Positions 26,955 to 28,059 of a DNA stretch of 64,000 nt are shown piece by piece. Where the stretch lies: sequence record PV464739.1; one strand, 5' to 3'. Position numbers and translations under genes: made by a program. This stretch comes from Escherichia phage RCIP0363. Position 1 is the stretch's first letter. Each line of letters begins with the position of its first letter. The notes under the pieces were generated by a model, which was not told the DNA's origin, searched no databases, and worked only from the letters and a program-made list of their open reading frames with translations.

Positions 26955-27544
26955 TCAAACTCCTTATTCATCACTTGTTCCAGCGCATAGGCATAAGCCT
27001 GATCAGTCGATTTGATAAACGTTCCGTTGTACATAACACCTTTACGGTCCTTGATGTCTTCATAGGCGGCTTGAGCGCAATCAGACAGTCGAAGTCCATA
27101 ATCATGCGCTACGCCGGAAAGATAATCGGCAGCGGCCATGATAGTGACATCAATATCCATGCTCTGATTTTTAGCAATGGCGTCACCAAGCCGTCCAAGA
27201 GTTTTTGCCAAGCGAAGAATAAATGAGTGAGGGTGAGCGCCTTTGTCAGCGCAACCGCCGCCGTTGATGTCTTCGATTTTTGCACCGTTTTGCGCGGCAA
27301 GAATAGTTAACACAACAAGGCAATCGCCGATGTCGTCCTTGATTGCGGCTTGTAAATCACAGATGGCCTGCTCTGTATATCCGATTTCAGGGTCAAAGAA
27401 CACAAGGTCATGTAATTGATCAATGTGGTCGGTCAACTCCCCAAACTCGCTAATAAGCTTCGGGTATTGGTCCTTAAGGTCGCAGCCTTGGATGATGTTA
27501 CGGTCAGAAGCCCACTGGCGAATGTTTGCATAAATCTGGTTCAT
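26951..27544 (-). CDS. MazG-like nucleoside triphosphate pyrophosphohydrolase (putative)
   Basis: All-alpha protein with ExxE...GD pattern (LISEFGELTDH, IGDCLVVLTILA) reminiscent of MazG; tentative. Confidence 0.3.
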   Translation of the reverse strand: MNQIYANIRQWASDRNIIQGCDLKDQYPKLISEFGELTDHIDQLHDLVFFDPEIGYTEQAICDLQAAIKDDIGDCLVVLTILAAQNGAKIEDINGGGCADKGAHPHSFILRLAKTLGRLGDAIAKNQSMDIDVTIMAAADYLSGVAHDYGLRLSDCAQAAYEDIKDRKGVMYNGTFIKSTDQAYAYALEQVMNKEFE

Positions 27545-28059
27545 TTATTTTCCTTTGATGCGTTGAATTGATCAATTTTAATTTTAGCCTGATTATAAGT
27601 ATCAATCAAGCTATTAACCTTCTCTTTTAATCGGTTTGTTTCTGCGGCGAACTGAACAAGAAAACTGACATCTTCTTCTGATAGTCCACAGTTTCCTTCT
27701 GGGATAGAGAGGCGTCCAGTGGTCGCAGAGTCGGGCATACTCCTGAGTAATTCACGGGAGCAGCTGAGTTGCTCGCGCAGCTTGATATTCCCAGACTTGT
27801 AACGAGCAATAGTGTCATCAGCAACCAGTTGCGCTTCCTGGCGACCCTTCTCATATGCCGATGCCGATTCAACCTGTAAAGATGCAATTTGCTCTTCGAG
27901 TGCATTTATCTTGTCCTTACGCTCATTAAGCGATGTCAGATATTGATTATCCTTGGCCAGTGATGCGTTGGTTTGCTGAAGGTCTTCAACGTATGATCCA
28001 GCGGCGAACGCGCCAACAAGGGCCAGAATCTTCAGAAGCGGTACAATTCTTTCTATCAT
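27541..28059 (-). CDS. i-spanin (Rz-like)
   Basis: N-terminal transmembrane segment IVPLLKILALVGAFAAG, coiled-coil periplasmic domain, and a lipoprotein ORF embedded in the +1 frame. Confidence 0.5.
   Translation of the reverse strand: MIERIVPLLKILALVGAFAAGSYVEDLQQTNASLAKDNQYLTSLNERKDKINALEEQIASLQVESASAYEKGRQEAQLVADDTIARYKSGNIKLREQLSCSRELLRSMPDSATTGRLSIPEGNCGLSEEDVSFLVQFAAETNRLKEKVNSLIDTYNQAKIKIDQFNASKENK
27627..27818 (-). CDS. o-spanin (Rz1-like lipoprotein) embedded in the i-spanin gene
   Basis: MTLLLVTSLGISSC gives a signal peptide plus lipobox (I-S-S-C); the short mature part is Pro-rich with a second Cys, as in Rz1. Confidence 0.5.
   Translation of the reverse strand: MTLLLVTSLGISSCASNSAAPVNYSGVCPTLRPLDASLSQKETVDYQKKMSVFLFSSPQKQTD

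Follow-up and report, generated by a model that had tools for sequence, protein, structure and literature searches.

The criteria that define embedded two-component spanins were set out by Kongari et al. (2018) (PMC6139136), and the same survey summarizes the mechanism of the lambda pair, Rz/Rz1. In lambda, the gene for a short lipoprotein (mature part of 40 aa with 10 Pro, ~25%) lies wholly inside a membrane-protein gene, in its +1 frame, and the pair has an N-terminal transmembrane domain (TMD), two helical segments with a linker, and periplasmic cysteines (PMC6139136). Yersinia phage PY54 (p62 and its nested Rz1) and Burkholderia phage Mica (i-/o-spanin) also have pairs of embedded +1 architecture, and these sit in canonical holin-endolysin-Rz/Rz1 cassettes. 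In PB1-like Pseudomonas phages, the lineage closest to the phage considered here, the predicted outer-membrane disruptor is a u-spanin of the JG024 gp08 type (lipobox AWAC; PMC6139136), a single protein that carries both a lipobox and a TMD at its C-terminus. The system most similar to ours is that of ECML-117, for which the 2018 survey chose a 75-aa form of the o-spanin, starting 205 nt into the i-spanin gene, and gave one i-spanin coiled-coil segment in its supplement (PMC6139136).

We analyzed a 64,000-nt stretch of DNA from Escherichia phage RCIP0363 (PV464739.1), hereafter the window, which is a Wifcevirus sequence 98% identical to vB_EcoM-Ro157lw. It carries the same spanin genes as ECML-117, Mansfield (CPT_Mansfield_057/058) and Bas98-101, in the same place between a Pam3-gp34-like gene and a MazG gene; Rz is 98.8% identical, and the differences are a few residue changes and the choice of an upstream o-spanin start in the Mansfield record. 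Thus, the pair is already known, having been catalogued for ECML-117 in 2018 and annotated in Mansfield and Bas98-101. Based on gene anatomy, conservation of both frames, homology and genomic context, we consider it very probable that the pair works as an embedded-type two-component spanin, the conclusion that other annotators had reached independently.

The outer, Rz-like (i-spanin) gene is an ATG-initiated ORF of 519 nt at 27541..28059 (-) that encodes 172 aa. Its product matches the Rz-like spanin family phrog_1327 (E=9e-27) over essentially the full profile (residues 6-160 against positions 9-156 of 158) and shares 98-100% identity with proteins that Mansfield, Bas98-101 and RefSeq records name i-spanin or Rz-like spanin. 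Hydrophobic sequence is confined to the N-terminus (residues about 1-24). There, codons 5-24 (27988..28047, (-)) encode a predicted transmembrane helix, the sole stretch whose Kyte-Doolittle hydropathy averages at least 1.6 over 19 residues. This part is also helical in the AlphaFold2 model. An acidic segment (EDLQQ) follows directly, and from this flank the topology is inferred to be N-in, C-out. The model (mean pLDDT 78) has a helix at residues 5-106, an unstructured stretch at 107-127 and a second helix at 128-170, so that the modelled periplasmic domain is mostly alpha-helical, with two segments and a linker, as in spanins. Cys100 and Cys124 are invariant among relatives, as is the second Cys of the nested product, and cysteines are thus present for putative intermolecular disulfides.

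Neither product was assigned to a family at E<=0.01 in Pfam and NCBIfam scans that included the lambda Rz/Rz1 families, and neither scored above the profile threshold of Phage_lysis (PF03245) or the Rz1 family. Unlike the shared architecture, sequence similarity to lambda was therefore not detected via Pfam, and PF03245 is linked to the pair only indirectly, through its mention in a note to the record of the Mica homologue. A PDB sequence search with Rz returned nothing significant (best E ~0.1, synthetic coiled coils).

The nested, Rz1-like (o-spanin) gene lies at 27627..27854 (-), entirely within the Rz gene and in its +1 frame. It starts at an offset of 205 nt from the Rz start and comprises 228 nt (75 codons plus stop), and is the same 75-aa form as that of ECML-117. 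An alternative ATG upstream at 27905 (-) would give a 92-aa product (27627-27905), the form annotated in Mansfield. The start kept in relatives is 27854, with the N-terminus M-R/K-K/R. The choice between the two starts is uncertain, and neither is preceded by a strong Shine-Dalgarno sequence.

The lipoprotein signal of the nested product, MRRVARKRNWLLMTLLLVTSLGISS immediately before C, fits the PROSITE PS51257-type pattern. The lipobox I-S-S-C (residues 23-26; codons at 27777..27788, (-)) ends in Cys26, the predicted lipid-attachment site, and leaves a mature part of 50 aa. In all five lineages the lipobox is [IT]-S-[SG]-C (ISSC, ISGC or TSSC) with Cys26 in place, and position +2 holds Ala or Val but in no case Asp (Ala in the window), as expected for sorting to the outer membrane. 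A six-frame scan of the window found this nested ORF to be the sole credible lipobox ORF. The original prediction, made from the sequence alone, had placed an embedded Rz/Rz1-type pair at 27541-28059, with a membrane coiled-coil outer protein and a lipoprotein ORF with an I-S-S-C lipobox in its +1 frame. These claims are borne out by the family match, the topology and helix-linker-helix model, the lipobox pattern and the conservation and homology described below. The description of the mature lipoprotein as Pro-rich was overstated: only 4 of its 50 residues are Pro (8%, compared with ~25% in lambda) and 8 are Ser, so that it is better called Ser-rich.

Both subunits are homologous to those of PY54 and Mica. 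The outer proteins are ~30% identical to Rz of the window (E 1e-14 to 2e-6), whereas the nested product reaches 53% identity with the Rz1 of PY54 (E=8e-18) and 42% with the Mica o-spanin. All three lipoproteins share a C-terminal motif, QMxxFLFxS. The pair in the window is the only one of the three located in a replication operon.

That the pair lies within the replication operon, on the opposite strand to the endolysin gene and 2.5 kb away from it, had also been predicted, and agrees with the ORF coordinates and family matches. Rz/Rz1 opens a terminator-preceded unit at the end of the replication operon. An intrinsic-terminator-like hairpin with a T-tract (28068..28099, (-); 9 bp stem with 6 G-C pairs) ends 18 nt before the Rz ATG. 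It is annotated as a terminator in Mansfield, and an equivalent hairpin and U-tract is found in the same place in four diverged relatives (Rz identity 56-66%), JG024, Spe5P4 and Kyle. Downstream of Rz lies the predicted MazG-like neighbor, a pyrophosphatase gene (26951..27544, (-); phrog_1992, E=1e-62) whose ATG overlaps the Rz stop (ATGA). Its own stop overlaps the start of an ATP-dependent DNA ligase gene (25977..26954, (-); phrog_114, E=9e-42), the last of the unit, after which a scan found another terminator-like hairpin (25883-25904, (-)). The upstream neighbor of Rz encodes a Pam3-gp34-like protein (PF23977, phrog_2402) of a family with no known function, and a PDB sequence search with it gave no solved relative (E ~0.1, synthetic coiled coils), so that the SSB-like label of the original prediction stays putative. 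A search for a sigma-70-like promoter in the interval from the terminator to Rz found none, and promoter-like matches in the region were not in excess (13, vs. 10.1 +/- 3.9 expected from shuffled sequence). The text of the ONT-cappable-seq paper on 14-1 (Pbunavirus) gives no positions for this region from which transcription timing could be read.

The endolysin gene (24362..25006, (+)) encodes a GH19-type enzyme (phrog_181, E=8e-70; PF00182, E=1e-7) that is 55% identical to the endolysin of JG024, and reading of its sequence revealed no hydrophobic segment of the SAR type at the N-terminus. It is the last gene of the structural operon, 2,535 bp from the spanin pair and convergent with the operon that bears it. 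The pair thus lacks the adjacency to holin and endolysin genes that is usual for spanins, though not a defining trait of them. T4 provides a precedent among virulent myophages, with unlinked genes for endolysin (e), holin (t) and spanin (pseT.3/pseT.2). T4 is the example of a "separated" spanin in PMC6139136; there, neither spanin gene is nested in the other, the two being separate and unrelated in sequence to the pair in the window. The predicted u-spanin of JG024 is likewise encoded far (~30 kb) from the endolysin, although at another genomic position. The original prediction had the lysis functions dispersed over three loci; the spanin and endolysin loci hold, while the third was a holin candidate at 63607-63822 (-) that matches no family. 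It had been named as the only candidate found, but the window contains other small membrane ORFs; membrane ORFs also lie at 62626-62967 and 25032-25244.

A search of the window yielded no homologue of JG024 gp08 (the predicted u-spanin), gp10 (whose counterpart in JJ01 is annotated as a holin) or gp51 (phrog_1544). A DUF7307 protein of the window was considered as a spanin and rejected, as it has neither a signal sequence nor a TMD. The label "U-spanin" is attached to ORF85 of JJ01 (PMC9583000), which, judged by length and position, appears to be a DUF7307 homologue.

How the pair came to occupy its present position may be clarified by comparison with PB1-like phages. JG024, Spe5P4 and Kyle share the slot, the upstream terminator and the flanking genes, but have phrog_1544 instead of Rz/Rz1. 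The slot holds a membrane gene throughout the PB1-like lineage, and this gene is phrog_1544 in Pbunavirus, Myosmarvirus and Kylevirus. (Pantoea phage LIET2 was set aside as a witness on the slot, as it is not a PB1-like phage.) Among 80 viral contigs, phrog_1544 lies directly after endolysins of five unrelated families in 52. Because the same slot carries this endolysin-associated gene in PB1-like phages, the position of the spanin pair does not seem arbitrary. One explanation is that lysis genes of the PB1-like lineage have long occupied the slot behind the Pam3-gp34-like gene, and that phrog_1544 was replaced there in Wifcevirus by a foreign spanin module. In line with this, none of the Escherichia phage records gave a match to phrog_1544. 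Conversely, Rz has no match in any Pseudomonas phage record, and outside the Wifcevirus group its nearest relatives belong to phages of other types, from Yersinia, Burkholderia, Pantoea and Serratia. On the other hand, the sole link of phrog_1544 to a holin family is below threshold (PF11351, E=0.018, in 1 of 10 members), and the proposed direction of replacement is tentative. We give this scenario an even chance.

What such a replacement would have exchanged depends on the function of phrog_1544. The protein combines an N-terminal glycine zipper with a coiled coil and a pair of TMDs at the C-terminus. Where its gene occurs in other viral contigs, a lipoprotein gene almost never follows, and a crude hydropathy scan found a small TMD-bearing ORF upstream of the endolysin in 28 of 50 phrog_1544 loci, a count that does not tell a holin from a spanin equivalent. 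phrog_1544 is probably a holin. It could instead be a spanin equivalent free of a lipid anchor, and hence a new class of envelope disruptor that Wifceviruses exchanged for a classical Rz/Rz1, but we regard this as rather unlikely; a one-slot swap of a holin for a spanin is the more likely of the two. If true, that swap would leave Wifcevirus without a known holin.

A different possibility is that the pair forms a real spanin-type complex that is not now used for lysis, being either a redundant relic or a component with another envelope role, such as superinfection exclusion. This would explain its place among replication genes, and is consistent with its separation from the endolysin, its start/stop overlaps with MazG and ligase, and the presence in the window of other secreted or membrane ORFs of no known role. 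However, relatives whose Rz is 56-66% identical show constraint on both frames, the homologues occupy canonical lysis cassettes, and the window contains neither a second spanin candidate, as judged by the six-frame lipobox scan, nor a homologue of the u-spanin predicted in PB1-like phages. A role outside lysis is thus very unlikely.

Finally, only the outer gene might be real, encoding a membrane-anchored coiled-coil protein, with the nested lipoprotein ORF an untranslated by-product of its sequence. Beyond the lack of a strong Shine-Dalgarno sequence at both starts, the PHROG spanin matches of the nested product are weak (E=3e-3). When Rz was recoded synonymously, 18% of the trials retained a +1 ORF of at least 92 codons and 3% a lipoprotein-type signal. 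This recoding test does not discriminate, as the +1 frame is in large part dictated by the Rz sequence, and we therefore replaced it with cross-lineage conservation and codon-position statistics. Seven close Wifcevirus sequences have too few substitutions for overlap constraint to show. In the four diverged relatives, the nested product is 59-64% identical to that of the window and retains the start, the Cys of the lipobox, the second Cys and a core motif of 23 residues (SGVCPTLxPLDASLSQKETVDYQ), so that conservation of the embedded ORF, proposed as a check on the original prediction, came out in its favor. Moreover, variation at third-codon positions of Rz is suppressed to about half precisely within the overlap, with 42 of 76 columns variable compared with 81 of 89 outside (Fisher p=2e-7). 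It is this conservation and suppressed variation, and not ORF length, that decides that the nested gene is real as read from the sequences; together with the closer identity of the nested products than of the outer proteins between the window and PY54, it makes a by-product extremely improbable.

Under the preferred reading of a functional embedded spanin, we infer lipid processing, complex formation, timing and a role in lysis by analogy with lambda Rz/Rz1. Rz would enter the inner membrane via its N-terminal helix, with the helix-linker-helix domain reaching into the periplasm. Rz1 would be made from the +1 frame of the same mRNA, exported, lipidated at Cys26, cut by signal peptidase II and, owing to the Ala at +2, sorted to the outer membrane. 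The two proteins may bind via their C-terminal parts and so span the periplasm, and the conserved cysteines probably stabilize the complex by disulfides. The peptidoglycan mesh would restrain the complexes until it is destroyed by the GH19 endolysin, whereupon the freed complexes could fuse or disrupt the inner and outer membranes, releasing the progeny. Since such a complex would be inert until the wall is gone, its genes would need neither adjacency to the endolysin nor tight timing. In the papers searched on this phage group, we found no experiments on the role of the pair or its close relatives (e.g., spherical-cell arrest). The atypical place beside MazG and ligase, the low Pro content of Rz1, the lack of a Pfam or NCBIfam match, the uncertain start of Rz1 and the outcome of the recoding control are points that we counted against a functional spanin.

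For the window, these results confirm an existing annotation and put it on firmer ground, since both frames are under selection and both subunits have homologues in canonical cassettes. The locus is a clean example of how spanin genes can sit among replication genes, in keeping with the accepted view that spanins stay inactive as long as the cell wall is intact. Comparison with the PB1-like relatives is worth following, as the same slot there holds a widespread, uncharacterized membrane protein that is tightly linked to endolysins elsewhere.

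The minus-strand gene at 27541-28059 encodes a 172-aa protein, Rz, whose only hydrophobic segment is N-terminal (residues about 1-24) and which matches phrog_1327, 'Rz-like spanin' in PHROGs, over its full length (E=9e-27). An AlphaFold2 model from six homologues (mean pLDDT 78) comprises a helix at residues 5-106, an unstructured stretch at 107-127 and a helix at 128-170. As modelled, the protein shares the lambda Rz plan of TMD, coiled-coil, linker and coiled-coil (PMC6139136). Wholly within this gene lies the minus-strand ORF of Rz1 (27627-27854, ATG at 27854), which starts 205 nt after Rz and is therefore in the +1 frame. 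Its product begins MRRVARKRNWLLMTLLLVTSLGISS followed by CASNS..., and displays a basic n-region, a hydrophobic core, the lipobox I-S-S-C, whose Cys is residue 26, and a +2 Ala, a lipoprotein pattern for which a six-frame scan of the window found no other credible candidate. The mature protein has 50 aa, including a second Cys. It had been described as Pro-rich, which is not borne out: Pro accounts for 4 of the 50 residues (8%; 6-11% in relatives), whereas lambda Rz1 is more Pro-rich, with 10 in 40 (PMC6139136). At E<=0.01, neither Rz nor Rz1 matched any family in Pfam or NCBIfam, those of lambda Rz and Rz1 included.

The length of the nested ORF is not by itself convincing evidence of a gene. 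When Rz was synonymously recoded using the phage's own codon usage, 18% of trials retained a +1 ORF of at least 92 codons and 3% a lipoprotein-like signal; the +1 frame is largely dictated by the Rz amino-acid sequence. At the level of sequence, it is the comparative evidence that is decisive for the nested gene being real. A protein search recovered four metagenomic relatives (56-66% Rz identity), all with the gene order DUF7307, Pam3-gp34-like, Rz, MazG, ligase. The embedded ORF is conserved in all four, starting at the equivalent position with M-R/K-K and retaining the lipobox ([IT]-S-[SG]-C), Cys26, the second Cys and a core shared with the window (SGVCPTLxPLDASLSQKETVDYQ); its product is 59-64% identical to that of the window, about equal to the Rz identity. 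In a codon alignment of these five lineages, Rz third positions vary in 42 of 76 columns within the overlap vs 81 of 89 outside it (Fisher p=2e-7). Each third position of Rz is a second position of Rz1, so selection on the nested frame would be expected to leave just such a shortage of variable columns in the overlap. Seven close Wifcevirus copies carry too few changes to show this effect.

The 4-kb stretch around the pair shares 98.4% identity with Escherichia phage vB_EcoM-Ro157lw and 94-98% with the other Wifcevirus-type coliphages listed, including WFH, ECML-117, Mansfield, FEC19 and Bas98-101; phages of this type are PB1-like myophages (PMC6753283). The pair is already catalogued and annotated in these near relatives. 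The 2018 spanin survey enters ECML-117 under both embedded i-spanins and embedded o-spanins, with an Rz that differs from that of the window at two residues, an o-spanin of 75 aa and a start offset of 205 nt (PMC6139136). In GenBank, Mansfield (MK903282) carries CPT_Mansfield_057 as i-spanin and CPT_Mansfield_058 as o-spanin, and four BASEL records annotate both genes, the outer one becoming 'Rz-like spanin' in RefSeq re-annotations. A literature search found no experimental work on this pair. The original prediction was real and correctly interpreted, though already catalogued: its coordinates, frame, lipobox, MazG neighbor and the 2.5 kb separating it from the convergent endolysin all agree with the ORF, family and lipobox analysis. 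As a separate observation, in a few rows of the survey's supplementary table the frame column reads 2 for the minus-strand embedded pairs of ECML-117, EC1-UPM and ECBP1 (offsets 205, 226 and 166 nt, all 1 mod 3) and 1 for plus-strand pairs of the same offset class; judging from these rows, the column seems to have been computed from left coordinates, ignoring strand (PMC6139136).

Homologues occur in canonical lysis cassettes. Beyond this group of phages, Rz is about 30% identical to proteins of Yersinia phages PY54 (2471-2992 of its locus) and P840 (E around 1e-14) and 32% identical to one of Burkholderia phage Mica (E=2e-6). The PY54 and Mica homologues each stand last in a holin-endolysin-Rz cassette, and each encloses a lipoprotein ORF nested in the +1 frame. 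Rz1 shares 53% identity with the nested PY54 product (E=8e-18) and 42% with the annotated o-spanin of Mica (E=5e-7), and QMxxFLFxS is a C-terminal motif common to all three. The two subunits are therefore members of a spanin family found elsewhere in ordinary lysis cassettes. ECML-117 and PY54 are separate singleton families in the survey (PMC6139136); with Rz about 30% and Rz1 53% identical, they form one family, in which conservation is higher for the lipoprotein than for the enclosing membrane protein. By sequence similarity, the more distant Mica pair belongs there too.

In the window, the pair sits in a long minus-strand operon with DNA polymerase III alpha and exonuclease subunits, helicases, DUF7307, a Pam3-gp34-like gene, MazG and ligase. 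The Pam3-gp34-like gene directly upstream (28117-28977, minus strand; PF23977, phrog_2402) had been labeled SSB-like, which is a guess: no solved relative was found by sequence. Its acidic C-terminal tail (...TDAEEF; ...TEAEEF in JG024 gp52) recalls the C-termini of phage single-strand-binding proteins, which might account for the label. Rz is preceded, 18 nt ahead of its ATG, by a hairpin (28099-28078, minus strand) that combines a 9-bp stem with a T-tract; another hairpin (25904-25883, minus strand) follows the ligase gene. The starts of MazG and ligase overlap the stops of Rz and MazG, respectively. These features make Rz/Rz1, MazG and ligase a terminator-bounded block, with overlaps of the kind typical of translational coupling. 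No sigma-70-like promoter was found between the hairpin and Rz, so transcription probably reaches Rz by read-through. T4 is the standard precedent for lysis genes being unlinked. If intact peptidoglycan restrains the complex, as it does the lambda spanin complex (PMC6139136), early expression would be harmless, and for that reason spanin genes could reside apart from the endolysin.

Lysis functions had been placed at three loci. The spanin and endolysin (GH19-type, 24362-25006, plus strand) loci are verified; no holin was identified in the window and none is annotated in Bas101, so two verified loci stand and the third is a candidate. That candidate (63607-63822, minus strand; 71 aa), in a small-gene cluster, has two or three hydrophobic stretches, no match in Pfam, PHROGs or NCBIfam, and a hypothetical counterpart in Bas101 (Bas101_0110). 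A further candidate (62626-62967, minus strand; 113 aa) has an N-terminal signal-like hydrophobic segment (...ISSAKA|E) and a C-terminal TMD, with neither lipobox nor family match; its topology is u-spanin-like minus the lipid anchor. Between the ligase terminator and the endolysin lie another candidate, adjoining the endolysin (25032-25244, minus strand; 70 aa), with a single weakly hydrophobic stretch and homology to JG024 gp48 (E=4e-9), and a 180-aa protein (25259-25801, minus strand) that clearly begins with a signal peptide and matches no family. In phage 14-1, gp48 reportedly forms a transcription unit by itself.

The slot of the spanin pair, with the same flanking genes and upstream terminator, is occupied in Pbunavirus JG024, Serratia phage Spe5P4 and Pantoea phage Kyle by a 201-aa phrog_1544 protein without a nested lipoprotein ORF (gp51 in JG024, 5201-5806 of its locus, minus strand; 5521-6126, minus strand, in L004 and 5001-5606, plus strand, in L019, both from PB1-like relatives). 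As in the window, a hairpin and U-tract precede the slot gene in these three phages and in the four diverged relatives. The phrog_1544 protein combines a glycine zipper at the N-terminus with a coiled coil and, at the C-terminus, two TMDs. Searches of the window found no homologues of phrog_1544, of JG024 gp08 (a predicted PB1-type u-spanin, lipobox AWAC) or of gp10, whose JJ01 counterpart is annotated as a holin. Among 80 IMG/VR loci encoding phrog_1544, an endolysin lies directly upstream in 52, from five unrelated families (GH108 34, phrog_90 6, GH24 5, muramidase 5, GH19 2), and a PB1-type neighbor in 11; in 28 of 50 loci, a crude scan found a small TMD-bearing ORF ahead of the endolysin. 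The SCUT-S1 authors called the protein a 'putative holin' (PMC6521218), and one phrog_1544 member gave a sub-threshold match to the GTA 3TM holin family (E=0.018). A spanin-equivalent role is possible. A convincing downstream lipoprotein ORF occurs in only one of the 80 loci (L064), where an o-spanin-like ORF about 440 nt downstream (start 3974, MTLKNWPPLRPLMLLALVLSVTGCAPTQ...) could be a case of phrog_1544 co-existing with a spanin. On the most economical reading, the lineage has long kept a lysis gene in this slot, where Wifceviruses swapped a holin-like gene for an imported spanin module. The pair itself belongs to a known kind and is ordinary for it; its position is somewhat unusual, yet conserved and explicable.
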